Shown in pieces: positions 1-11,417 of a DNA stretch of 11,417 bases. Position numbers and translations under genes: made by a program. The notes beneath the pieces are model-generated. The model was not told the DNA's origin. It worked only from the letters and a program-made list of their open reading frames with translations, and searched no databases. Source of the stretch: Armatimonadia bacterium. Lineage in GTDB: Bacteria > Armatimonadota > Zipacnadia > Zipacnadales > UBA11051. Location of the stretch: assembly GCA_039683575.1 (NCBI GenBank), contig JBDKRC010000307.1, forward strand, positions 1-11,417. The letters are read 5' to 3'. The number at the start of each line of letters is the position of its first letter. Position 1 is the stretch's first letter.

Positions 1-980
1 GGCACGTGCGACTTGCACCCCAGTATCAGCGTCGCCTGCATCTCGCGCGCTAGAGACTGCAGCCTTTCCAAAACTGCCGGATCATCCGTCACGTAGTCAT
101 TCACAGCCAGTTCCGGCCAGACAATGAGTTTCGGCCGCGAGCGTGCGAACTCGCGCGTGCGCTCGATGAGCCAGTCGAGGTCCTCAGTCTCGCTCTGCAC
201 CATGAGGACGGTGAGAGGGTCGGGGTCGGTGCCCCCTCCCACGGCCCCGCCGCTCGAAAGCCCTGTGAGCCACGCCACGCGGAACGCCAGGGCCAGGACC
301 GCGACCAGTCCGGTAGTAGCGGCCAGAGCCTTGAGACGGCGCACCCGGTTCGGCTGCAACAGCGCCAGGGTCAGGGCCGCGCTGACCAATACCGTCAGGA
401 ATGTCATCCCATACACGCCCACGAGCGGGTACGTGGACTGGCTGGCCTGCGAGGCGACATAGGCGCTGCCGGGCTGCAGCCACGAGAAGCGGAAGTACCA
501 GCCCTGGCAGCGCACCCACTCAATCGCGGTGAAGAGCACAGGCGTAGCGAGGATCATCTCTAGACGCGTGGTAGGCATGCTCCGCATGCCGGACTCACTG
601 ACCGAGATTCCGGCATGCGGAGCATGCCTACCACGCGCACAAAAGGCAAGCCGCCGCGCCAGCACATGATACCCAAGCCCAAACAGCAGCCAGGGCAGCG
701 CAATGAGCACGCAGACCGCGATCATGCCGGTAGCGAAGATGCTCCAGCGCCAGTGCAGCGAGACCAGCGACATCGTCCAGCCGGTGAGCAGCGCCAGATA
801 ACCGGCGGCGCGGGTGGTTTCGGTGCGGTGGAGGCCGATGAGGAGTGGCACCAGCGCGACCGGCGCCAGGAACCAGAGGTCGAAGGGGTAGAAGACAAGC
901 GCGCCAAGCACCCCGGAACCCACGGCGAGCAGGCCGTTGCGCTTGAGGTCGACGGCGACGTCGCTTGGGGTGAGGCGCAT
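1..980 (-). CDS. lnt: Apolipoprotein N-acyltransferase (Lnt), 3' end beyond window edge
   Basis: Manual translation from ATG at 980 (GGGGGA SD about 6 nt upstream) stays open to position 1: MRLTPSDVAVDLKRNGLLAVGSGVLGALVFYPFDLWFLAPVALVPLL...TPVLFTAIEWVRCQGWYFRFSWLQPG...YPLVGVYGMTFL...TVLMVQ...KLIVWPELAV...ATLILG. It has the Lnt N-terminal TM pattern (P-x-x-L-W-x-L-A-x-V-A-L-V-P-L, E-W-x-R, G-V-Y-G) and the nitrilase-fold IVWPE catalytic-Glu motif. It is absent from the ORF track because its stop codon is outside the window. Confidence 0.93.
   Translation of the reverse strand, partial: MRLTPSDVAVDLKRNGLLAVGSGVLGALVFYPFDLWFLAPVALVPLLIGLHRTETTRAAGYLALLTGWTMSLVSLHWRWSIFATGMIAVCVLIALPWLLFGLGYHVLARRLAFCARGRHAPHAGISVSESGMRSMPTTRLEMILATPVLFTAIEWVRCQGWYFRFSWLQPGSAYVASQASQSTYPLVGVYGMTFLTVLVSAALTLALLQPNRVRRLKALAATTGLVAVLALAFRVAWLTGLSSGGAVGGGTDPDPLTVLMVQSETEDLDWLIERTREFARSRPKLIVWPELAVNDYVTDDPAVLERLQSLAREMQATLILGCKSHV
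565..637. repeat. GTAG-type REP doublet (REPIN-like inverted repeat) inside the lnt coding sequence
   Basis: Perfect 29-bp inverted arms CGCGTGGTAGGCATGCTCCGCATGCCGGA (565-593) and TCCGGCATGCGGAGCATGCCTACCACGCG (609-637) with a 15-nt spacer. Each arm has GTAG adjoining the hairpin GGCATGC-TCC-GCATGCC. Confidence 0.88.
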
Positions 981-1163
981 GGAGATTCCCCCGGTGCGGT
1001 AAGTTACGAGTTGAAACACGGCAAACGGCGGTGAGTTCCGCGAACTAGAAGCTCCTCAGACCCCAGTGGGCAAGTATTGCGCTTCGGCAAGGCTATATTG
1101 GTGATTCTGTGACTTGGGTTGGAGGGTGGCTTAGCTGGGAGGTCGTTGGTTGTCTACGGTTTT

Positions 1164-1185
1164 TGACATAACTTCTATACTGTCA
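1164..1185. promoter_or_regulatory. Possible operator palindrome TGACA-N12-TGTCA upstream of lnt
   Basis: TGACA (1164-1168) and TGTCA (1181-1185) are inverted around an AT-rich 12-nt spacer in an AT-rich intergenic patch. The arms are short, so this may be chance. Confidence 0.25.
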
Positions 1186-1360
1186 TGGTGCTCACCAGCG
1201 GGTCGCCGGGCCATCCCGAATCGAGGTGCCGGTAGGGGCTAGGGCATGGGAAATGCCTCCGAATGAGAGCTTTACAGGATGTGCAGGATAGAGGCAATGA
1301 TGGACAGGATACGGCACAGAGGGTTCGAGATGGTGAGGTGGGGGACCTGCAGAGATGGGC

Positions 1361-2029
1361 TTAGTCGTCAGCGAGGGAGCCGTTCTGGAGGTGCAGGACG
1401 CGGTCCATCACGCCTATCACGTCCTGATCGTGGCTGGCGATGATGACCGTGCGCCCCTGGTCGGAGAAGCTGGTCAGAAGCTCCATGATGCGCCCGGCGT
1501 TCGCGCAGTCCAGTTCCCCCGTCGGCTCATCAGCGAGGATCAGTGAGGGCTGGTTCACAATCGCCCGCGCCACCGCCGCACGCTGCTGCTCGCCGCCGGA
1601 TAGCTCACCCGGCAGATGTGTCGCGCGGTGGGCGATGTTAGCCTGCTCCAAAGCAGCCTGCACGCGCTCGTCTTTGTCGGAGTGGGAGAGAGGGACCGGG
1701 ATCAGCGGGAGCATCACATTTTCATACACCGTCAGCGCCGGGACGAGGTTGGCAGCCTGAAACACGAAGCCCACGGTGTTGCGGCGATAGAGCGTCAGCC
1801 CGTCGTCGGACAGGTTCTCCAGCGACGAACCATCAACCATTACCGTGCCCGAGGTCGGCCGGTCCAGCCCGCCGAGGATGTTGAGCAGTGTGGACTTCCC
1901 CGAGCCCGAGGGTCCGCTCAGACCAACAAGCTCTCCCTGGGCGATCACGAATGAGACCTCGCTAAGCGCGATAACCTCGCGCGCGCCCTGGGTGTAGACT
2001 TTGCTGAGTAGGTTGGCAGTCAAATCCAT
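1361..2029 (-). CDS. ABC transporter ATP-binding protein, LolD/MacB/FtsE family
   Basis: 222 aa. Walker A GPSGSGKST, GFVFQ Q-loop, signature LSGGEQQR, Walker B/D-loop LILADEPTGELD and SHD switch, all typical of LolD/MacB-type NBDs. Confidence 0.95.
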   Translation of the reverse strand: MDLTANLLSKVYTQGAREVIALSEVSFVIAQGELVGLSGPSGSGKSTLLNILGGLDRPTSGTVMVDGSSLENLSDDGLTLYRRNTVGFVFQAANLVPALTVYENVMLPLIPVPLSHSDKDERVQAALEQANIAHRATHLPGELSGGEQQRAAVARAIVNQPSLILADEPTGELDCANAGRIMELLTSFSDQGRTVIIASHDQDVIGVMDRVLHLQNGSLADD

Positions 2030-2031
2030 GG

Positions 2032-2072
2032 TCAGGTTTCAGGTCTCAGGGATCAGAGTTCAGAATCAGGAA
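2032..2072. repeat. Degenerate tandem heptamer repeat (TCAGnnn x6)
   Basis: TCAGGTT TCAGGTC TCAGGGA TCAGAGT TCAGAA TCAGGAA, lying directly upstream of the ATPase start codon on the minus strand. Confidence 0.75.
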
Positions 2073-2097
2073 GTAGCGAGATTGCAGCGGGGCTGCG

Positions 2098-2182
2098 TGA
2101 ATTGGGGACTGACACATTTTCGCAGCCTGTACTATCGCTTGCCAGTAACCCACGTGCGAAAATGGTGTCTGTACCCAATTCA
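2098..2182. repeat. Imperfect inverted repeat, REP/MITE-like (GGGGAC-GACAC type)
   Basis: TGAATTGGGGACTGACACATTTTCGCA (2098-2124) matches the reverse complement of 2155-2182 (TGAATTGGGTACAGACACCATTTTCGCA) with 2 mismatches and 1 gap. The spacer is 30 nt. Confidence 0.75.
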
Positions 2183-2192
2183 TTCCAACGCA

Positions 2193-3503
2193 CTACAGCC
2201 GCCTCAAGGCCTCAGACGGATCAAGCCGCGCTGCTCGGTGTGACGCCGCCAGGCCCGCCAGCGTGCCAATAACCAGTGCCGCCACCAGCCCCAGGCCAAA
2301 GATCAGAACTGAAGGCGTCGTATCCAGCGGCAACGCCAGCGGCGGCTGCGTGGTTGAGCAGGGCGGAAACGAGCTCAGCGCCGATGGCAGGCGCAGGTGG
2401 GCGAACTGGCTGAAAGCGAAGGCCAGCCCCCAGCCCACCAGACACCCCGCAACCCCGCCAATGACGCCCCCGATAAGCTCCTCGGCCATAAACAGCCGCG
2501 ACACGTCCATCCGCCGCCAGCCCAGAGCCCGCATCAGACCGACCTCTTTGAGCCGCTCGGCCACGGTCGAAAGCGCGTTGCGGACGATCAGCAGGAACGT
2601 GAAGAGCAGCACCAACGCCGCGAGCCCCAGCATCGTCCGCCGGGTGAGATCGGCCACCGCCGAGGTTCCCGCGTCCACGTTGTTAGAGGTCGTGATGCTC
2701 GTCTCCGGTGGGTCATTCGGCTTCGGCTCGATCCATTTCTGCACCACCGCCGAGACCAGTTCGATGCTCTTTTGGGACTTCAGCGCGACAAAGATGGTGT
2801 CCACGATGTCGCCCTTGCCATACATCGCCTGCGCGGTCTTCAGCGGAATGAAGGCCTCCGCCTCCGCGATGCGCGCCGAGCCGGACAAGTCCACAACCCC
2901 CACCACCGTAAACAGGTCCCGCGGCCCCAGGTGGATCTTATCCCCAACCTTGTACCCAAACGCCTTCGCGTATTCCTTGGTAAGCATCACTGCGCGGTTG
3001 TCGTAGCGCGTCAAATACCGCCCCGAGGTGATGGCGCAGCAGGACTTATCATCTTCCCCCGTCTTCTCCTCAGCCTTCTTGCCGGCGAGGGCGGCCTTCT
3101 CTTCCTCAGTCTTCTTGCTGATCCGCACGGGCCCAATGGTTTTGAGCGTCGGGTCAACGCCCGCAACCACGGTCGGATGCCCCTTGTGGAACGCCCACAG
3201 CAGCAGCACCCCCGAGACATTCTCGACCTGCTGGAGCGCACCGATCTTCTTGACCACTTCCGCGTCAATCTCGGCAAGGTCCTTGGGGAGCTTCACATCG
3301 GCGAAGGGGCAGGGCTTGACGCGGCGCTGGATGACCATATCCGCCCCCGCGGCGCCCAGCGAATCATCAATGGCGCCCTTAACGGACTCGGAGATGGACA
3401 CGACCGCCACCAGCATGCCGATGCTGAGGGTAATGCCGGCAATGGCCAAAGAAGTGCGGGTCCGGCGGCGGACAAAGCCTCTCCAGGCGTACTTGAATAG
3501 CAC
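2193..3503 (-). CDS. ABC transporter permease, MacB-PCD/FtsX (LolC/E-like) family
   Basis: KYAWRGFVRRRTRTSLAIAGITLSIGMLV (TM1), a large extracytoplasmic domain (GRYL...KVGDKI...FTVVGV...AFIPL), the VAERLKEVGLMRALGW FtsX motif, and C-terminal AARLDPSEALR. Start placed at GTG 3503 (GAGG SD 6 nt upstream). ATG 3515 and TTG 3557 are alternatives. Confidence 0.93.
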   Translation of the reverse strand: MLFKYAWRGFVRRRTRTSLAIAGITLSIGMLVAVVSISESVKGAIDDSLGAAGADMVIQRRVKPCPFADVKLPKDLAEIDAEVVKKIGALQQVENVSGVLLLWAFHKGHPTVVAGVDPTLKTIGPVRISKKTEEEKAALAGKKAEEKTGEDDKSCCAITSGRYLTRYDNRAVMLTKEYAKAFGYKVGDKIHLGPRDLFTVVGVVDLSGSARIAEAEAFIPLKTAQAMYGKGDIVDTIFVALKSQKSIELVSAVVQKWIEPKPNDPPETSITTSNNVDAGTSAVADLTRRTMLGLAALVLLFTFLLIVRNALSTVAERLKEVGLMRALGWRRMDVSRLFMAEELIGGVIGGVAGCLVGWGLAFAFSQFAHLRLPSALSSFPPCSTTQPPLALPLDTTPSVLIFGLGLVAALVIGTLAGLAASHRAARLDPSEALRRL

Positions 3504-3603
3504 AAACAGCCTCATGAAGCGGGGTAATATGGCGACTGACAGTTTCAACAAGCGCAAGCCCAGGGATGGTTCCCGCTGTGGACTCAGGAGGGGCCGTCTC
3601 TCA

Positions 3604-3691
3604 GGAGGGGCCGAGCTTTAGCCGGCCCAGCCGTTATCTATGACACCTTCTGCCATTGGCAGACGTGGGCCGGCTAAAGCTCGGCCCCTCC
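3604..3691. repeat. GGAG/GTAG-type REP doublet (REPIN-like), nested in a degenerate outer inverted repeat
   Basis: Perfect 26-bp inverted arms GGAGGGGCCGAGCTTTAGCCGGCCCA (3604-3629) and TGGGCCGGCTAAAGCTCGGCCCCTCC (3666-3691). Each arm is GGAG plus an imperfect hairpin. The spacer holds TCTGCCA-T-TGGCAGA. Outer partial arms are AGGGGCCG (3589-3596) and CGGCCCCT (3703-3710). Confidence 0.85.
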
Positions 3692-3721
3692 AAAGAGAAA
3701 TCCGGCCCCTTCATCCCAAAA

Positions 3722-3755
3722 CACAAAAAAGCCCCGCTCATTCGAGCGAGGCTTT
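3722..3755 (-). terminator. Intrinsic (Rho-independent) terminator
   Basis: Minus strand reads AAAGCCUCGCUC-GAAU-GAGCGGGGC-UUUUUUGUGUUUU. The single stem irregularity is a G-U wobble only on the minus strand, which supports the orientation. Confidence 0.85.
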
Positions 3756-3867
3756 GTAATCTTTGGCGCGGCTGTTTACACCCGGACAGTCGCCAACCGT
3801 GACCGACCCCCTCAGACCCCAGTCCGTTGCCGGACCCTACGTCTATGTGCACACTCAAGGGGCGTCG
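3724..3867 (-). ncRNA. Putative structured ~144-nt RNA (riboswitch-like leader or sRNA), family not recognised
   Basis: Bounded by a near-consensus promoter and a terminator. Folds by eye: P1 CGAC(G)CCCCU/AGGGGGUCG, AGAC/GUCU, GUCCG-GCAA-CGGAC (GNRA loop), and UUGGCG..CUGU/ACAG..CGCCAA. Confidence 0.6.
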
Positions 3868-3873
3868 AGAGTT

Positions 3874-3902
3874 AGTATAGCGGAAGCGGGGACGTTTGTC
3901 AA
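3874..3902 (-). promoter_or_regulatory. Sigma70/sigmaA promoter
   Basis: Minus strand TTGACA (3902-3897), 17-nt spacer, TATACT (3879-3874). Predicted TSS about 3867-3866. Confidence 0.85.
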
Positions 3903-3927
3903 AGGAGCTTGGCAACGCCCACGCGCT

Positions 3928-3971
3928 TGTCATGCCGAGCACGGACGTCCGCGTCCGGCAAGCGAAGCATC
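3928..3971. repeat. GTCAT-type REP-like palindrome with an inserted hairpin
   Basis: TGTCATGCCGAGC-a-CGGACG-TCCG-CGTCCG-gca-AGCGAAGCATC resembles the GTCAT(G/C)CTGAGC..AGCGAAG(C/G)ATC repeat type with an extra internal stem-loop. Recognised from memory only. Confidence 0.5.
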
Positions 3972-4024
3972 CCCGGCATCCCCAACACCTGCCGGTCCCC
4001 ATGTTGGGCAACTCGTCTCCCCAG

Positions 4025-5863
4025 CTACACTCCGCTCCCCGCCCCAATCGTGGCAATATGCCGCCGCTCCCCCGTCCGCGGGTCATAGCTCGTGAAGCTG
4101 CGCTCCCTGTCCCAGATAATGACCTTCCCATCCGGCGCCATCCCCAGCACCTCCCCCTGCTGCTCGCCCAGATCGCGCAGGCCCGAGCCATCGGGGTTCA
4201 GGCGCCAGAGGTGGAACTGGGCGGGCGTAGCCCCCCTTGACTTGACCGGGACGTGCACGACGGCATATGGCACGCCGATGTGGTGGGCGATCTGGGGGGT
4301 GGATCCGGTGCTGAAGCCCCAGAGCGGCCTCGCATTGGCTATCCGCATGGTCGCGGTGTCAAGGAAATAGAACACAGCGGGCCCTTCCGGCCCGAACGGC
4401 CGGTGTCGGACCACGAGATGTCGGTTGTCGAGGAAGCTGTCGAGAGTGGCCGAGAGATTCGGGAAGCGGTACAGACAGCGCGTCTGGAGATCGAGAATAA
4501 GCAAAGTGCTCTCGGATGACTCAGCACCGCTCGGGCGTGGCTTGCCGGTGGCCTGCGCGACCAGATAGCGTCCGTCCGGCGACACCTGCTGCAAGAACGA
4601 TACGCCCGGAATGTCGATAATGGACTGCGTCTGGCGGGTCTGCAGGTCCAGGCGCGTGACGCTGACCGAGGCGGCGAGGTAGTACGCGTAGCGGCTGTCG
4701 GGTGAGAAAACGGGGCCGCCCTCTTGCGGGACTGTGGCGACAGGGCGATTGCCATCATAGATGACGTGCTTGAAGAGCTTGGGAGGCTGGATGACCGTAT
4801 AGCGGCCATCGGGGGAGCCCATGCGAAAACGCTCTGGAAGACGGCGCAGGGCCCTGGTGGCGGTGTCGGCAGACCATGTGATACTCTCTTGGAGCATCGG
4901 GCCATATCCGAGGTAGACCGAGTTCCCGCAGGCATCATCGTACCAGGGATTGCCCTTGGCGAGTAGCCGGGGCGTGCTACCGGTGAGCGGCAGGGCCCAC
5001 ACGCCCCCTACGTCAGTAGGCGAAGCGCTGGTGCCAAAGCAAACACTGTCGCCGACGAGCCCGAGACTCTCTGCACGAAGTGGCTGGGCCAGCGACGGCG
5101 TGCGCGTGTACTGCCAGCCTGCCATCCCGGCGAGGGCGAGGACAGAGAGAACGAGTAACGTTCCCAGCGCCCGCCAGAGCCTACGCCGCGTCTCCAGCAC
5201 CGGCAGGCGCACGAACGCATAGCCCGCCGTCGCCAGCGCCAGCATCGACAGCATCACCGCGCAGCCTTTCCAGAGCGTAACGGAGGTCTCGATCTCGCCA
5301 AAGTACGGTCCCCACGCCGTCGGCAGGTAAAACCCCAGCACATACACATACCCCGCCGCCAGCGCGAACAAGGTCACCAGCCCCAGCCCCGCCGCTGCCA
5401 GGATGGGGGAGAGGAGCGTCGACCACAGCAGCGCGAAAGCAAAACACAGCGGCAGCCCATAGCCCAGCGCCGTCCACGTCTCCGGCGCGACCCATGTCTG
5501 CAGATCAGCGCTCCCCGAACTGAAGTCCACCACGCTCAGGCAGATGAGAAAGCCCAGGGTGATGGCGGTAAATGTCAGCAAGGCGCTGACGAGGGCCTTC
5601 GCGCCCCAGAGCGTCACCCGCTTGTAGGGCCACGAACTCAGAAAGACCATGTTCTGCCGGCTCTCCCGCGCGAACGCCCCCGCCCCGCCGAGGAACGCCA
5701 TCACAAACGCCAGCACCGCCCAGATACTCACCGCCAGCCCCTCATAGCGCGCCCACTGGTAGTTGTACGCCAGATCAATCAGGGCCAGCACAACGGCAGT
5801 ACCGAGCACCGCGCAGAAACTGACGGACAGGTCTCGGACTTCCTTCCTGATCAGGGCCTTCAT
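4025..5863 (-). CDS. ABC-2-like permease fused to a C-terminal TolB/WD40-like beta-propeller (diverged paralog 3)
   Basis: 612 aa. N-terminus MKALIRKEVR, several hydrophobic helices, the FARE..Q..MVFLSSWP motif, then repeated SPDGRY/FSPDSRY/LNPDGSGLR/APDGK propeller motifs. Its start overlaps the upstream stop (ATGA at 5860-5863). Confidence 0.85.
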   Translation of the reverse strand: MKALIRKEVRDLSVSFCAVLGTAVVLALIDLAYNYQWARYEGLAVSIWAVLAFVMAFLGGAGAFARESRQNMVFLSSWPYKRVTLWGAKALVSALLTFTAITLGFLICLSVVDFSSGSADLQTWVAPETWTALGYGLPLCFAFALLWSTLLSPILAAAGLGLVTLFALAAGYVYVLGFYLPTAWGPYFGEIETSVTLWKGCAVMLSMLALATAGYAFVRLPVLETRRRLWRALGTLLVLSVLALAGMAGWQYTRTPSLAQPLRAESLGLVGDSVCFGTSASPTDVGGVWALPLTGSTPRLLAKGNPWYDDACGNSVYLGYGPMLQESITWSADTATRALRRLPERFRMGSPDGRYTVIQPPKLFKHVIYDGNRPVATVPQEGGPVFSPDSRYAYYLAASVSVTRLDLQTRQTQSIIDIPGVSFLQQVSPDGRYLVAQATGKPRPSGAESSESTLLILDLQTRCLYRFPNLSATLDSFLDNRHLVVRHRPFGPEGPAVFYFLDTATMRIANARPLWGFSTGSTPQIAHHIGVPYAVVHVPVKSRGATPAQFHLWRLNPDGSGLRDLGEQQGEVLGMAPDGKVIIWDRERSFTSYDPRTGERRHIATIGAGSGV

Positions 5864-7947
5864 GGTTGGCTGCCTGCCTTCTTCTTAGCCTCCATCGCCT
5901 TCGCCCGCTCCTCAAGCGCATCGAAACGCGACCGCGTCTGCAGCACCGTCCGTATCTGCCCGCCGCTGCCGATCGCCAGCAGTCTGTTGCCCTGGCTGAA
6001 AATGACTTCCCCCGCCGGGGTCCAGCCGAGCAACTCCTCGGACCCCATGCCGAAGCTGCTTCCCTCAGGCACCGCGACTTTCGTTGTCTTGCCGTCGAGG
6101 CCCAGTATGTACACCGCACTGGCTTCCCTCTGCCCAAACGCCTCCGCGTAGAACGCCACCCGCTTCTCATCCTGCGACCATTTCATCTCCATCGGCCTGA
6201 ACATGTCCGGAAGCTCCAGGAACATGCTGCGGACGATCTTGCCAGTTCGCATGTCCAGTACCGCGAACTCCTGCTTCACCTTCCGGCGCGGGTCCATGCC
6301 AAACTCGTCGCTGCGGTCCGCCTTCCGCATCAGGAAGCAGTACCGCTCGGAGTCCGACATGCTCGCGTTGTATGACCCCCACCCTGGCAGGTCAAAGTAC
6401 CGGGTGCCATCGATGCGCCGGAACCTCGTCACGAGAACCTGCCGGTACGTATTCGTCATGTACGTGTAGGTCCGCTTCACCGTCTTGCCGTCCGGCGTGC
6501 GCACCGGGTACGTCCGCTGCACCGGCCGGTACTGGCTCTTCGGCAGCGGCACCGAGTAACTGCGGTCCTGTATCATCCAACTCCCCCACGGACTGAAGAA
6601 GTTGACATTCAGGTTGGGCAGCCCCGGAATTGTCAACGGCTTCGTCTCCGCCGACGGCACTGCGATCCGCTTCAGTGCCCGGCGGTGGTCTGCGCCCGAT
6701 TCGCTCACAAAGATCGCGCTGTCATCCGGCAGCCACGTCAGGAACCATGGCTCATAGTTGGGCACCGCGACCTTCCCCAGCCGCTGCCAGGTGTTCGTAT
6801 CCACAAACTCCCCGCCGAGCCACAAATACTTCCCCTGCGGCGAAAGCAGCTCCGCCGTGCCGTTCACTCGCGGCACCACAAACAGCTTCGTCGCCTCCGG
6901 CTTCTCCACCCCGGTGTCGAGATACCACCACTGGAAGTCGTTGGTCGACTGGAACGAGCGCCTTCGTCCCCGCCGCCCGTTGGGGCTCTTGACCTCGGCC
7001 ATCACCACGCTCCCAAACACCAGCCGCCGGCTGTCCTTGAGCCAGATGATCTTATCCGCCTGCTCAGTAGTAAGCCGCCGCAGCCCCGTCCCATCCGTGT
7101 TGATCAGCCATAGCCCCTTCCCAAAGCTCTCGCTGAACACCACCTGCTTCCCATCCGGGCTAAGCTCGCTGTGCGAGATGCCCTGCGGCTTCGGCTCCAC
7201 CCGCAATACGGTCGCCGCCCACACCATCAGCATCACCAGCAGCGCGGGGATGATGATCGCGGCGGCAGTACCAAGCGACCGCCGGGCCCTGCGCCCGACT
7301 TCGAGCACGGGAGTAGTCAGAAACCCGCGCAGGGAGCCGGTGATGAGGGCGATGATGATGATGCCGGATGCAGCATACGAGAGGTAAGGAGATGGCAGAT
7401 GAGGTTGGTTACGCATCGCCATTGCCGTGTAGATGTACAATGGCATTGCGGCGAGAACGGAGAAGACGAGAGAGAGAACGAGGCTCAGCCCAAAGGCGCC
7501 CGCAGCGGTACGCGTCAGCCCCGACGCAAAGAAGGCAACGACGAAGAAGAAACTGAGGCTGCCGATAGGCCAGACGGTCTTGAGCGTGTAGCCGAGGTCC
7601 ACCACCGGCGTGTGGTGTTGCGCCAGCCACACCAGCATGTACATGGCCGCGATGCCCACCACCAGCGTAATCACCAGGTTCATCACAAACCGCAGCATCC
7701 ACCACTGCAGCCGCGACACCGGCCACAGGTAGTGCCACTCCTGCCGCTGCTGCAGCCGGTCCGCCGAAATCGTGTCAGCCCCCAGGTACAGCGCCAGCAA
7801 AAGCCCTGCCCACATGTACAGAAAGATGAGCCCTTGCGACCAATACCCCTGCAAGTGCAGGATGTACGTCACCGCCCCCAGCACCCCCAAAAGGCCCACC
7901 GGCAGCCACCAGATCTCCCGCAGTTCCTTCGCGATCAGCGCTCTCAT
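5860..7947 (-). CDS. ABC-2-like permease fused to a TolB-like beta-propeller (paralog 2)
   Basis: 695 aa. MRALIAKELREIW, multiple TM helices, then LSPDGKQVVFS..LWLINTDGTGLRRLT, LSPQGKY, WLPDDS and WSQDEKRVAF. ATGA overlap with the upstream gene at 7944-7947. Confidence 0.88.
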   Translation of the reverse strand: MRALIAKELREIWWLPVGLLGVLGAVTYILHLQGYWSQGLIFLYMWAGLLLALYLGADTISADRLQQRQEWHYLWPVSRLQWWMLRFVMNLVITLVVGIAAMYMLVWLAQHHTPVVDLGYTLKTVWPIGSLSFFFVVAFFASGLTRTAAGAFGLSLVLSLVFSVLAAMPLYIYTAMAMRNQPHLPSPYLSYAASGIIIIALITGSLRGFLTTPVLEVGRRARRSLGTAAAIIIPALLVMLMVWAATVLRVEPKPQGISHSELSPDGKQVVFSESFGKGLWLINTDGTGLRRLTTEQADKIIWLKDSRRLVFGSVVMAEVKSPNGRRGRRRSFQSTNDFQWWYLDTGVEKPEATKLFVVPRVNGTAELLSPQGKYLWLGGEFVDTNTWQRLGKVAVPNYEPWFLTWLPDDSAIFVSESGADHRRALKRIAVPSAETKPLTIPGLPNLNVNFFSPWGSWMIQDRSYSVPLPKSQYRPVQRTYPVRTPDGKTVKRTYTYMTNTYRQVLVTRFRRIDGTRYFDLPGWGSYNASMSDSERYCFLMRKADRSDEFGMDPRRKVKQEFAVLDMRTGKIVRSMFLELPDMFRPMEMKWSQDEKRVAFYAEAFGQREASAVYILGLDGKTTKVAVPEGSSFGMGSEELLGWTPAGEVIFSQGNRLLAIGSGGQIRTVLQTRSRFDALEERAKAMEAKKKAGSQP

Positions 7948-10031
7948 GGCTGCTTCCCTGCCTTCCTCCTCGCCTCCTGTGCTTTGGCCAGCTCCTCCAG
8001 CTTGTCAAAGCGCGTCGGCGCCTCCAGCAAAGTCCGCGTCTGGCCGTTCGGGCTGACGGCCACCAGCCGGTTGCCCCGCCTCACTATCACCTCTCCCGCA
8101 GCGCTCCACCCCAGCAGCTCGTCTTCCGTCGTGACATACGCGTCGGTCTTTGGCAGCTCAGCCACCTTGTGCTCGCCGTCCAGGGTCAGGAAGTGGACAG
8201 TCTCCCGCGAGTACAGCGCCACCTGCTTCTCATCCCGCGACCACTTCAGGTCTGACGGGTCACGGTATGGGAACTTCACCTTCATGGTGCGGACTATCTT
8301 CCCTGTCCGCATGTCCAGAAGCCCGAATACGAGCTCTCCGTTCCTGAAGGGGTCATGGTCGAGCTCGTAGTCCTCCGTGGGGCTCCGGATCAGTAAACAG
8401 TACTGCTCTGAGTCCGACATGTTGGCGCTGAATGATCCCCAACCTGGCACGTCGAACTGCCTGCTGCCGTCTATCCGCCGGAACCTCGTCACGTAGACCG
8501 GCTGGCACGTGTTCGTCGTGTACCTGTAAGGTCGGTTCACCGTCTTGCCGTCCGGCGTGCGCACCGGGTATGTCCGCTGAACCACCTGGAGCTGGCTCTT
8601 CGGCAGCGGCACCGTGTAGCTCCGGTCCTGGATCATCCAGTTACCCCAGGGCTTGAAGAAGCTGACATCGGGCTTGGGCAAGCCCGCGATCCCCAGTGGC
8701 TTCGCCTCTCCCGATGGTACCTCAATTCGCTTCGGCGCCTGGTCCTCAGGTTCGCGGTTGTTCTTCACGAGGATCGCGCTGTCATCCGTGAGCCACGTCA
8801 GAAACGACGGCCAGTAATACGGTGCCGCGACTTTCCCCACCCGCTGCCACGTGGTCGTATCAACAAACTCCCCGCCCAGCCACAGGTACTTCCCCTGCGG
8901 CGACAGCATCTCGCTGTCGCCTTCAACGCGCGGTAGTACGAAGAGCTTCGTGGGCTCGGGCTTCTCCGCCCCCGTGTCCAGGTACCACCACTGGGTGTAA
9001 TTGGTTGAACGATGCGACCGCACCCTTCCCCACCGCCCGGGGTTCACCGTCTCCTCCATCGCCACGCTCCCAAACGCCAGCCGCCGGCTGTCCTTGAGCC
9101 AGATGATCTTCTCCGCCTGCTCTTTACCAAGCCGCCGCAGCCCCGTCCCATCGGCGCCGATCAGCCACAACCCCGCGCCCTCACTCTCGCTGAACGCAAT
9201 CTGCTTCCCATCGGGGCTCAGCTCGCTCTTCGCTATCCCCTGCGGCTCAGGCTTCGCCGTCAGTATCGCCCGGAGCGGGAGCACGTACGCGATCAGCAGG
9301 CCCGCCACCACGACTGCCAGACACGGGACGACACTCACCCGGGCTGCCTGCCGGGTACGCGTAACCCGCGCGCGCACGTCCAGCACCGGCGCAGTAGTGA
9401 ACGCGCAGTATGATGCGCCTGCCAGACCGGCAACTATGATCAGGAGAAAGAGATATGAAGGCGTAAGCGCGGGCGTGACGGGACCAATCTGCCGCGCCAT
9501 GGTGATGAGCAGTATGTACCATGGGAAAAGTGTAAGGCAGCTACACGCAAAGAAGATGACGATGCCAACTCCGAACGCCCTGGCCGCCGACCGCGTCACC
9601 CCCGAGGCAAAGAACGCAAACGTGAACGGGAACACCAGAGAAGGAAGCAGGCCTGCCAGCGTGTATGTGGTGATCTTCCGCATCTCTTCAGGCGCATAGT
9701 GCTGCGTCAGCCACACCAGCATCGCCGTCGCCGCCGCGCCGACCACCAGCGTGATCACGAGATTCATCCCAAACCGCAGCCACCACCACCGCGCCCGTGA
9801 CACCGGCCACATGTAGTGCCACTCCTCCAGCCCCCGCAGCCGGTCCGCACAGATCGCATCCGCCCCCAGGTACAAGGCCAGCAATACCGTCGCCAGCATG
9901 TAGATCATCACGATCCCGGGCGTCCAGTACGCGCTCACACGCAGCGCGTAGGTCACCGCACCCAGCACCCCCACGAGCCCCACCGGCAGCCACCAGATCT
10001 CCCGCAACTCCTTCCAAATCAGCGCCTTCAT
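7944..10031 (-). CDS. ABC-2-like permease fused to a TolB-like beta-propeller (paralog 1)
   Basis: 695 aa, clearly homologous to 5860-7947 (shared LSPDGKQ, KIIWLKDSRRL, LSPQGKYLWLGGEFVDT, QRTYPVRTPDGKTV). A GGGGGA/GAGG SD-like sequence lies upstream. Confidence 0.88.
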   Translation of the reverse strand: MKALIWKELREIWWLPVGLVGVLGAVTYALRVSAYWTPGIVMIYMLATVLLALYLGADAICADRLRGLEEWHYMWPVSRARWWWLRFGMNLVITLVVGAAATAMLVWLTQHYAPEEMRKITTYTLAGLLPSLVFPFTFAFFASGVTRSAARAFGVGIVIFFACSCLTLFPWYILLITMARQIGPVTPALTPSYLFLLIIVAGLAGASYCAFTTAPVLDVRARVTRTRQAARVSVVPCLAVVVAGLLIAYVLPLRAILTAKPEPQGIAKSELSPDGKQIAFSESEGAGLWLIGADGTGLRRLGKEQAEKIIWLKDSRRLAFGSVAMEETVNPGRWGRVRSHRSTNYTQWWYLDTGAEKPEPTKLFVLPRVEGDSEMLSPQGKYLWLGGEFVDTTTWQRVGKVAAPYYWPSFLTWLTDDSAILVKNNREPEDQAPKRIEVPSGEAKPLGIAGLPKPDVSFFKPWGNWMIQDRSYTVPLPKSQLQVVQRTYPVRTPDGKTVNRPYRYTTNTCQPVYVTRFRRIDGSRQFDVPGWGSFSANMSDSEQYCLLIRSPTEDYELDHDPFRNGELVFGLLDMRTGKIVRTMKVKFPYRDPSDLKWSRDEKQVALYSRETVHFLTLDGEHKVAELPKTDAYVTTEDELLGWSAAGEVIVRRGNRLVAVSPNGQTRTLLEAPTRFDKLEELAKAQEARRKAGKQP

Positions 10032-10043
10032 GCCTCATTCCCC

Positions 10044-10934
10044 CTATGCTGCCTTACCCGTCCGCACAAACGCCACGAAGATGTCCTCCAGCGAGCAGTG
10101 CTCCACTTCCGCGCTCAGCGCCCCCGCATCATGCAGCCGCTGCAGTATCCCGGTGTCATAGTCCCGTACCACCCACACCTGCTGCCGCCCCCCATCCGAA
10201 TGCTGCAGTACCCCCGGCAGTTCCACCTTCGTGGGCTCCGCGAAGGTCGCAATCACCCGCCGCACCGCCCCCTTCAACTCCTCCAGCGGCGCCTGCACCA
10301 CCAGCTTCCCCTCGTGCAAGATCCCGATCACATCCGCTACCCGCTCCACATCCTCGAGGATATGCGACGAGAAGAACACGGTCGTCCCGGTATCACTCAG
10401 CGCCCCGACAATGCTCTCCATGAACTCCCGCCGCACCAGCGCATCCAGACCCATCGTCGGGTCATCCAGTATCAGCAGTCGCGGTCGCGACGCCAGCGCC
10501 GACAACAGCGCCGCCTTCCCCTGCATCCCCCGCGATAGCTGACCCAGCTTCCGCTCCGCCGGCAGCTCCAGCCGCTTGCGCAGCGCCTCCGCATACCCCG
10601 CGTCCCAGTTCGGGTGCACCCCGCGCCCAAAGCCCATCAAGTGCCCCACCGTCATCCACTCGGGCATATGCACCCGCTCGGGCACATACGACACCACCCG
10701 CTTCATCGCCACATCCTCCCGCAGCGGATCGAACCCCATCACGCGCATGGAGCCGATATCCGGCTGCAGCATCCCCATGAGCATCTGGATGGTGGTAGTC
10801 TTCCCGGCCCCATTGCGCCCCAGGTACCCATAGACGCTCCCCCCAGGCACCTGCAGGTTCACATGATCCACCGCAAGCACATTGCCAAACGCCCGCGTCA
10901 ACCCGGTAGTCTCAATAGCCAACTCACTCATCAT
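10044..10934 (-). CDS. ABC-2/DrrA-YtrB-type ATP-binding protein
   Basis: Walker A GRNGAGKTT, signature LSRGMQGK, Walker B LLILDDPTMGLD, SSHIL and C-terminal SLEDIF. Start placed at ATG 10934 behind a GAGGGGAG SD (MMSELAIETTGL). In-frame ATG 11012 is an alternative. The track's 11399 start overlaps gntR and is not credible. Confidence 0.93.
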   Translation of the reverse strand: MMSELAIETTGLTRAFGNVLAVDHVNLQVPGGSVYGYLGRNGAGKTTTIQMLMGMLQPDIGSMRVMGFDPLREDVAMKRVVSYVPERVHMPEWMTVGHLMGFGRGVHPNWDAGYAEALRKRLELPAERKLGQLSRGMQGKAALLSALASRPRLLILDDPTMGLDALVRREFMESIVGALSDTGTTVFFSSHILEDVERVADVIGILHEGKLVVQAPLEELKGAVRRVIATFAEPTKVELPGVLQHSDGGRQQVWVVRDYDTGILQRLHDAGALSAEVEHCSLEDIFVAFVRTGKAA

Positions 10935-10971
10935 CGAACTCTCCCCTCGTAAGTAACCGCTAACGCTGCCT

Positions 10972-10996
10972 GTAGGAGCGGTCACCAGACCGCGAT
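10972..10996 (+). repeat. Single GTAG-type REP
   Basis: GTAGGA-GCGGTC-ACCA-GACCGC-GAT has the GTAG tetranucleotide plus GC hairpin architecture of GTAG-family REPs. Confidence 0.7.
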
Positions 10997-11025
10997 CATC
11001 TACGACCACCATTTGCCTCACCCCC

Positions 11026-11417
11026 CTAATCATCCCCTCCCACCCCCGCCTCCTCAGCCTCCCGCAAAATCTCCCCCGCAACCTCCCGCAACTCCCGCCA
11101 CCCCATCCCCACACTCCGCCCCAGCGCCACCGCCCCGCGCAGCCGCGCCCGCACCAGATCGGCGCTCTGCCGCCCGGCCAGCGCCACGGCCTCCTCAGCC
11201 ACAAACGTCCCGCTCCCCTGCCGCGACGCCAAAAGCCCCTCCGCCTGCAGATCGCGATACACCCGCGCGATTGTACTGGGGTTGATCCGAAGCTGCGCGG
11301 CCAACTCCCGCACCGTAGGAAGCTGATCCCCGACCACCAGCGCCCCGGTAGCAATAGCCAGCCGCATCTGCTCCTTAAGCTGCAGATGAAGCGGCGCACC
11401 AGAGTTGGGGTCGAGAG
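11026..11417 (-). CDS. GntR-family transcriptional regulator, YtrA subfamily (start just beyond window)
   Basis: The frame extends upstream of the track ORF: LDPNSGAPLHLQLKEQMRLAIATG..GDQLPTVRELAAQLRINPSTIARVYRDLQAEGLLASRQGSGTFV. It has a wHTH with a short helical C-terminus and sits directly before an ABC ATPase, as YtrA does. Confidence 0.93.
   Translation of the reverse strand, partial: LDPNSGAPLHLQLKEQMRLAIATGALVVGDQLPTVRELAAQLRINPSTIARVYRDLQAEGLLASRQGSGTFVAEEAVALAGRQSADLVRARLRGAVALGRSVGMGWRELREVAGEILREAEEAGVGGDD

Follow-up and report, generated by a model that had tools for sequence, protein, structure and literature searches.

Trans-encoded small RNAs (sRNAs) of bacteria are transcribed from their own sigma-70 promoters and end at Rho-independent terminators, and the Hfq-dependent type of such RNAs is known from enterobacteria. 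For Armatimonadota, a full-text search of the literature on sRNAs and riboswitches found no relevant work. A candidate RNA gene occupies positions ~3866 to ~3724 on the minus strand of an 11,417-nt stretch from an Armatimonadia bacterium (GenBank assembly GCA_039683575.1, contig JBDKRC010000307.1, positions 1 to 11,417), and this whole stretch is called the window here. A first-pass annotation of the window had picked out an orphan structured RNA with its own promoter and terminator at this place, and the proposal is strengthened by two homologues, in which the similarity extends from the -35 box through the terminator. As in a trans-encoded sRNA gene, the locus has a promoter of its own, as judged from its sequence, and an intrinsic terminator that closes a short non-coding transcript. 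The reading favoured here, with a probability of roughly 55%, is that of a stand-alone small non-coding RNA gene of ~145 nt, which belongs to a previously undescribed family. Our verdict is a new sRNA family of an ordinary, known kind, outside all Rfam families.

Three copies of the element were compared, namely that of the window and those on the metagenome contigs L055 and L056, each of which carries a full-length relative with TTGACA, a 17-nt spacer, the common 5' end, the 3' hairpin, and the terminator. The similarity begins at TTTGACAAA. Upstream of the -35 box, 13-17 of 60 nt are identical between pairs of copies, which is the random level. The -35 hexamer is identical at 6/6 positions, the promoter spacer at 7/17, 7/17, and 12/17 with its length kept, the -10 hexamer at 4-5/6, and the 5 nt after the -10 hexamer at 5/5, and past the terminator 13-20 of 40 nt agree. 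Within the RNA, the invariant parts are UCGACGC, GUGUGCACA, GGGGUC, a 42-nt run that comprises a linker and a hairpin, and both arms of the terminator. Variation is greatest in the centre, inside the closing helix P1, where indels of 20 and 23 nt occur. Since the similarity spans the -35 box to the terminator and the hexamers and their spacing are kept, the locus behaves as an independent and constrained transcription unit; the promoter spacer is near-randomised and provides an internal neutral control, which shows the remainder to be under constraint. The 20- and 23-nt indels are not multiples of three and no open reading frame (ORF) is shared between the copies; therefore, the unit is non-coding. 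Overall, the alignment demonstrates an independent, constrained, non-coding unit that runs from a predicted promoter to a predicted terminator.

The promoter and the terminator were both recovered where the first-pass annotation had placed them. TTGACA-17-TATACT (3902-3874, minus strand) has 11/12 consensus matches and is the sole promoter-like site that a consensus scan finds across the 11.4-kb window, and in the 12.46-Mb genome a perfect TTGACA followed at 16-18 nt by a -10 box matching at least 5/6 positions is rare, with 77 sites on both strands. The 6S RNA gene of the same genome has TTGAAA-17-TACAAT ~15-45 nt upstream of C254:1058, and this suggests that RNA genes of the organism are driven by consensus promoters of the sigma-70 type. 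The terminator consists of a 12-pair stem (3755-3728) and a U-run, and an A-rich stretch sits just before it. The start of the RNA at 3867-3865 is derived from the -10 box, and its 3' end is placed within the U-run.

The minimum-free-energy (MFE) fold of 3868-3724 has -63.4 kcal/mol (z = -3.2; 0/200 shuffles were as stable), in agreement with the earlier picture of a ~144-nt RNA that folds into P1 and hairpins. The same fold shows P1, the AGAC/GUCU helix, the GUCCG-GCAA-CGGAC hairpin, a second hairpin, and the terminator. Covariation had been suggested as a check, and the RNAalifold analysis of the three sequences answers it in part: the 10 pairs of P1 are all intact, two of them being changed one-sidedly and one on both sides, from U-A to C-G, but the pseudoknot that had been proposed between GUGUA and UGCAC shows no covariation at all. 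This 5-bp pairing can form, yet it is at chance level, with a run of at least 5 pairs arising in 47% of loop shuffles (n = 20,000). The smaller helices fared unevenly as well. The GUCCG-GCAA-CGGAC hairpin folds in the window, but its loop is GCGG in both homologues, and therefore the GNRA loop is not conserved; AGAC/GUCU is present inside P1 in the window's fold, but the helix is not conserved in the homologues; and the second stem is a hairpin in the MFE fold, although its inner part pairs in ViennaRNA differently from the way it had been drawn. In the central domain, the strand CGGAY is common to two 5-bp hairpins that exclude each other, and all three sequences are compatible with either. 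One is the GUCCG/CGGAC hairpin of the first-pass annotation, and the other is CGGAY-NNNN-GUYYG, which has a GGAA loop in the homologues. The features of the unit are collected in the table below.

Table. Predicted features of the RNA gene in the window, in the order of transcription
Feature	Positions	Strand	Basis and remarks
-35 hexamer TTGACA	3897..3902	minus	consensus scan; same in 3/3 family members
-10 hexamer TATACT, 17-nt spacer	3874..3879	minus	consensus scan; TATAGT and TACAGT in the homologues, with equal spacing
Predicted small RNA, ~142-145 nt	3724..3867	minus	fold, single copy, homologues
P1, 5' strand	3857..3866	minus	RNAalifold
Invariant GUGUGCACA, 5' internal loop, contains the palindrome GUGCAC	3846..3854	minus	9 invariant columns in the 3-sequence alignment
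Variable central domain	3813..3845	minus	here a short hairpin with a GCAA loop; 20 or 23 nt longer in the homologues
P1, 3' strand	3801..3812	minus	two registers possible because GUC is repeated
Invariant 42-nt block: linker GUCACGG and 34-nt hairpin UUGGCG...CGCCAA with loop CCGGGUGUAA	3762..3803	minus	3-sequence alignment
Intrinsic terminator hairpin, 12 bp, GAAU loop	3728..3755	minus	scan; both arms invariant in 3 sequences
U-rich terminator tail	3718..3727	minus	scan; similarity of the homologues fades ~10 nt past the tail

The assignment of the RNA to no known class, made in the first-pass annotation, is borne out by Rfam 15, in which neither the window nor the L055 and L056 copies match any family at the gathering cut-offs. 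At E<=10 on 3550-4050 (501 nt), the RNA obtains sub-threshold matches only, on the 3' hairpin and the terminator, namely Leu_leader (RF00512; 30.4 bits against a cut-off of 50) over 3726-3806 and Trp_leader (RF00513; 19.8 against 41) over 3723-3801; the L055 and L056 copies likewise have sub-threshold matches only. ARAGORN reported no tRNA and no tmRNA. Signal recognition particle (SRP) RNA and 6S RNA were rejected as identities for the locus; both were found above cut-off elsewhere in the genome, at C63:35648-35747 (66.1 bits) and C254:1058-1254 (66 bits), respectively. A loose resemblance of UAGGGUCCG...CUGGGGUCUGAG to the 5' core of the ykkC/guanidine-I riboswitch (RF00442) had been noted as well. 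It did not hold, for RF00442 gives no match even at E<=10 in the same 501-nt search. The ykkC-like string is not conserved either; the window reads GUAGGGUCCGG where the homologues read GGUAGGUCUGG and UUAGGUCUGG, and the 20/23-nt indels set the next segment apart.

The RNA is single-copy in its own genome (352-contig assembly, 96% complete). BLAST of the 186-nt unit found no homologue in 60 relatives, two non-self matches of 27 nt and 89% identity (E ~0.008) being rejected as homologues, and a single-sequence covariance model (R1), which was built from the window sequence entered twice, found none in the same 60 relatives (best non-self score, 24.3 bits). The 465-nt intergenic region was compared with 47 loci by blastn and nhmmer, which gave nothing below E 0.01, and blastn in 'distant' mode gave no match in phages and plasmids. 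A purine/pyrimidine-degenerate pattern of the 5' domain had 0 matches in genome contigs and 0 in metagenome contigs. A degenerate pattern of the 3' hairpin matched the two metagenome contigs L055 and L056, with 0 matches in genome contigs and 0 in viral contigs; of the 42 positions of the block, this pattern fixed 14, restricted 20 to the purine/pyrimidine class only, and left 8 free. The conserved blocks outside the 42-nt hairpin block were free to vary in the search, and the positions of GUGUGCACA were among those left free.

A three-sequence covariance model (R2), built from the window, L055, and L056, scores L055:1912-2066 at 181.6 bits and L056:223-66 at 178 bits, both of which served to build it. 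With R2, matches were obtained in 4/79 genomes at E<=0.1 when all genomes of the class were searched and in 15/151 genomes at E<=0.01 in an even sample of the phylum, the window's own genome being included in each count. The non-self matches (best, 34.4 bits) were rejected as chance, and the alignments inspected (8) rest mainly on the terminator. The family occurs in the window's genome, in near-identical strains, and in the two diverged metagenome copies, and it appears to be confined to a sublineage of one genus. Judging by its repeats, L055 is from a close relative of the window's genome, since its end repeat and its IS110-family element have copies there. The 28-nt GC-rich repeat at L055:2200-2227 has 69 copies with at most 1 mismatch in the window's genome, one in each of two congeners, and zero in the third congener and in the sister genus, and is a recent expansion specific to the window's sublineage.

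With regard to expression, 20 sequencing runs share words with 3300-4300; four of these were compared as contigs, and the evidence is drawn from those four. In the metatranscriptome run X7, one 190-nt contig is 100% identical to 3818-4007 at a depth of 8.4, and the flanking coding regions, 4086-4300 included, have no cover, an absence that proves nothing alone. In the DNA run X1 of the same study, the region is covered at a depth of 4-6. The X7 contig suggests local transcription, the contigs being free of strand and end information and DNA carry-over being possible. In two runs, contigs break off at 3814 and 3818, at the junction of the invariant 3' part and the variable centre, and these stops are probably branch points of the assembly graph between co-occurring variants rather than ends of the RNA. 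The X1 contig (3698-3997) has 9 differences from the window and, directly ahead of the -35 box, an insertion of 16 nt; among the 5 differences listed, 1 is within the RNA, at 3754, and turns an A-U pair of the terminator into G-U.

A proposed course of events at the sRNA gene can be described as follows. The sigma-70-type promoter would fire and start the transcript, which would fold into the closing helix P1 round a fast-evolving insert, followed by the invariant linker and hairpin, and transcription would stop at a constitutive intrinsic terminator. The RNA would then act in trans by way of its sequence-invariant parts, that is, GUGUGCACA and the linker with the hairpin loop, either by base-pairing with mRNAs, possibly with the help of Hfq, or by binding a protein, and it would not sense a ligand to control the neighbouring operon of the MacB/LolC-like permease. 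The genes of both Hfq and CsrA are present in the genome. Compared with 600 random genomic windows by RNAduplex, the pairing of the RNA with the 5' region of the permease gene ranks at the 23.5th percentile; the unrestricted duplex model is unrealistic, and the result is uninformative. A complementarity between mRNA 3481-3458 and the RNA at 3837-3822 and 3757-3748 was taken as chance; it involves the hairpin that is not conserved.

Several observations weigh against a stand-alone sRNA gene. The comparison covers only three diverged sequences, and the positions of the 42-nt block that were fixed or restricted in the hairpin pattern make the invariance of this block partly a matter of ascertainment. 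The 3' hairpin shows zero variation among the three sequences, and with one two-sided change in P1 the structure is therefore not proven by covariation. The X7 contig reaches 140 nt upstream of the predicted start and is without the 3' 94 nt of the RNA, and since it carries no strand or end information, the ends of the RNA remain predictions. An antisense target search of the whole genome gave longest matches of 14 nt at E>=2.5, which is the chance level. R2 did not detect the RNA in the other 78 genomes of the class nor in the 150-genome sample of the phylum; therefore, it is young and could be dispensable. Finally, the consensus scan found no promoter-like site between the terminator and the permease gene, and the L055 and L056 contigs end 65-160 nt past the terminator, so that a common downstream gene is possible.

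The conserved stretch could instead be an element at the level of DNA, or a passenger of repeat-mediated rearrangement, such as a site of protein binding or recombination that has a chance promoter, or a decaying fragment, with no function as RNA. This is unlikely, but it has some observations in its favour: synteny is broken at the stretch, which has a multi-copy repeat on either side, its range is very narrow, its conserved blocks are invariant in sequence and without covariation, and TGTGCACA is a DNA palindrome. However, across copies with a near-randomised promoter spacer, the promoter, P1, and the terminator all persist with changes that preserve pairing, and the fold is more stable than its shuffles (z = -3.2). 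In addition, the RNA is single-copy, unlike the repeats on both of its sides.

A reading in which the ABC-2/propeller operon upstream supplies the RNA, either as its structured 3' untranslated region (UTR) with the terminator or as a stable product of processing, is rather unlikely; the promoter would then be secondary or silent. The sole contig from an RNA library (3818-4007) starts 18 nt past the upstream stop codon and crosses the promoter, and no terminator-like site was found between the stop codon at 4025 and the RNA. Against a 3' UTR, the promoter hexamers are conserved at constant spacing next to upstream sequence that is unrelated, and the three copies lie behind different neighbours, which are the ABC-2/propeller gene with its stop codon at 4025 in the window, a same-strand IS110-family element that ends ~180 nt before the promoter in L055, and a divergent methyltransferase gene in L056. 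Homologues of the upstream gene in other genomes are without such an RNA, and the upstream coding region at 4086-4300 has no cover in the RNA run.

A cis-acting leader is quite improbable. It would be a riboswitch or attenuator of the operon that encodes the MacB/LolC-like permease, a LolD-like ATPase, and Lnt, and a signal would set the read-through of the terminator. The first-pass annotation had left the choice between such an attenuator and a stand-alone sRNA; the evidence speaks for the latter and disfavours the former. The RNA and the permease gene share a strand, and the RNA lies ~170-220 nt upstream of the gene start, with no other promoter-like site in front of the gene, and its domain closed by P1 is followed by a terminator; the weak Leu_leader and Trp_leader matches, which are below cut-off, reflect this layout of hairpin plus terminator. 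Nevertheless, no alternative fold competes with the terminator. Its pairs have probabilities of 0.73-1.0 in the window and 0.97-1.0 in the homologues, its hairpin still appears in the MFE fold with the 5' strand of P1 blocked, and in each of the three sequences a fold without the terminator is 19-20 kcal/mol less stable, in thermodynamic terms only. The antiterminator that had been proposed by way of the 3' strand of P1 can be drawn, but it is not energetically competitive. Moreover, the core enclosed by P1, where a ligand pocket would be expected, is the most variable part, and only GUGUGCACA is invariant there.

The gene context also argues against a leader of the permease operon. Orthologues of the permease are present in 23/41 genomes at E<=1e-30, the window's genome included, and all three congeners have one, with 71-76% identity. 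In each of the three, a region of ~300 nt upstream of the permease gene faces a divergent gene for a 53-aa Flp/Fap pilin (PF04964, E 2.5e-9 in G002; loci L026-L028 of G003, G002, and G001). None of the three upstream regions has any similarity to the RNA, and the whole congener genomes are without a match to the model. With the pilin gene before the permease in the congeners, it follows that the window's lineage was rearranged at precisely this intergenic stretch. The RNA is separated from the permease gene by a repeat at 3597-3698 with 33-nt inverted arms, which are 94% complementary and 36 nt apart; the family of these arms has 217 BLAST matches on 66 contigs of the window's genome, and the repeat reaches a depth of 142 as against 4-6 in its flanks in a DNA run. 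In a different study, one contig matches 3722-3814 perfectly before it diverges, and the sequence right past the terminator differs. On the cis/trans check raised earlier, the three copies have three different upstream neighbours and the permease orthologues of 3/3 congeners are without the RNA, and the L055 and L056 contigs end before any downstream gene. Therefore, from the differing neighbours, the congeners without the RNA, the lack of a competitive antiterminator, and the variable core of P1, a riboswitch or attenuator is unlikely.

It is very unlikely, although conceivable, that the GUGUGCACA internal loop and the hairpin loop CCGGGUGUAA dock with each other, and that the resulting compact fold binds a small molecule or a dedicated protein. 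The RNA would then belong to a structured regulatory class that is new, and its promoter-to-terminator cassette would move among the repeat-rich intergenic regions of the lineage. Least of all is a small-protein gene or leader peptide to be expected, such as the 6-codon frame UUG GCG ACU GUC CGG GUG UAA in the invariant hairpin: it has GAGGGGG 10 nt upstream of the UUG and is identical in the three sequences, but it is buried in a stable hairpin and has a UUG start with a long Shine-Dalgarno spacing, and longer frames run into early stops or lose their phase at the 20/23-nt indels.

Some features of the surroundings were also recorded. The permease ORF is listed from TTG 3557, and a GTG at ~3503, ~18 codons downstream, is a likelier start, based on the orthologues and on a GAGG 6 nt before it; with this start, the RNA ends ~220 nt upstream of the gene. 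Matches to miRNA families of Rfam at 3589-3710 were attributed to the inverted repeat and rejected as an RNA gene. A second palindromic repeat is present at 3920-3985, 25-80 nt upstream of the -35 box, with ~10 copies in the genome and a raised depth in run X1, and in L055 a similar GCGGAC...GTCC palindrome is found at a comparable distance upstream of the promoter. The upstream operon (4025-11399, minus strand) begins with a DrrA-like ABC ATPase that has an N-terminal extension of ~150 aa, followed by three proteins of 695, 695, and 612 aa, which have overlapping stop and start codons and no match in Pfam or NCBIfam. When the 612-aa protein is aligned with its 695-aa neighbour, a common hydrophobic N-terminal part is suggested, which gives the impression of an ABC-2-permease-like membrane domain, and repeated 'SPDG'-type motifs in the alignment are reminiscent of TolB-like beta-propellers. 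Tandem homologues of the proteins of this operon are present in relatives. In L055, positions 287-1700 are an IS110-family insertion sequence (IS) with the domains DEDD_Tnp_IS110 and Transposase_20 (346 aa). Both ends of this IS match several contig ends of the window's genome with 72-87% identity, so that related IS copies break the assembly there.

The regulatory RNAs of Armatimonadota are essentially uncharted, and this locus offers a concrete candidate with clean boundaries, and three natural variants of it can be used for the design of probes. The conserved promoter of the RNA indicates that sigma-70-type consensus promoters can be read in this lineage. The locus also shows young, lineage-specific sRNA genes sitting in repeat-rich hotspots of rearrangement. 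If the sRNA reading is true, it adds one more orphan sRNA family and no new mechanism.

In comparison with known systems, the RNA differs from ykkC in that it is without a switching terminator and stands in an unrelated gene context. With the leaders of amino-acid operons it shares a hairpin followed by a terminator; however, its matches to Leu_leader and Trp_leader are below the cut-offs and delete most of the model, and a leader peptide with Leu or Trp codons is absent. The bridge or seek RNAs of the IS110 family are similar in size to the RNA, and L055 has an IS110-family transposase gene upstream on the same strand. An IS110 bridge RNA was nevertheless rejected, with the right end of the IS near L055:1700 and the promoter of the RNA at ~1878, and with IS ends that are multi-copy and an RNA that is single-copy in the window's genome; furthermore, the window and L056 copies are without an adjoining transposase gene. 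From the trans-encoded sRNAs described so far, the RNA is set apart by the lack of a relative in sequence or in Rfam and by a host lineage that is uncultured. In its organisation, however, it resembles them closely: it is a non-coding intergenic unit within the range of 50-300 nt, with a conserved promoter, a strong U-tailed terminator, and an A-rich stretch before the terminator, and it combines invariant segments beside fast-evolving ones with a narrow phylogenetic range, in a genome that has the gene for Hfq.

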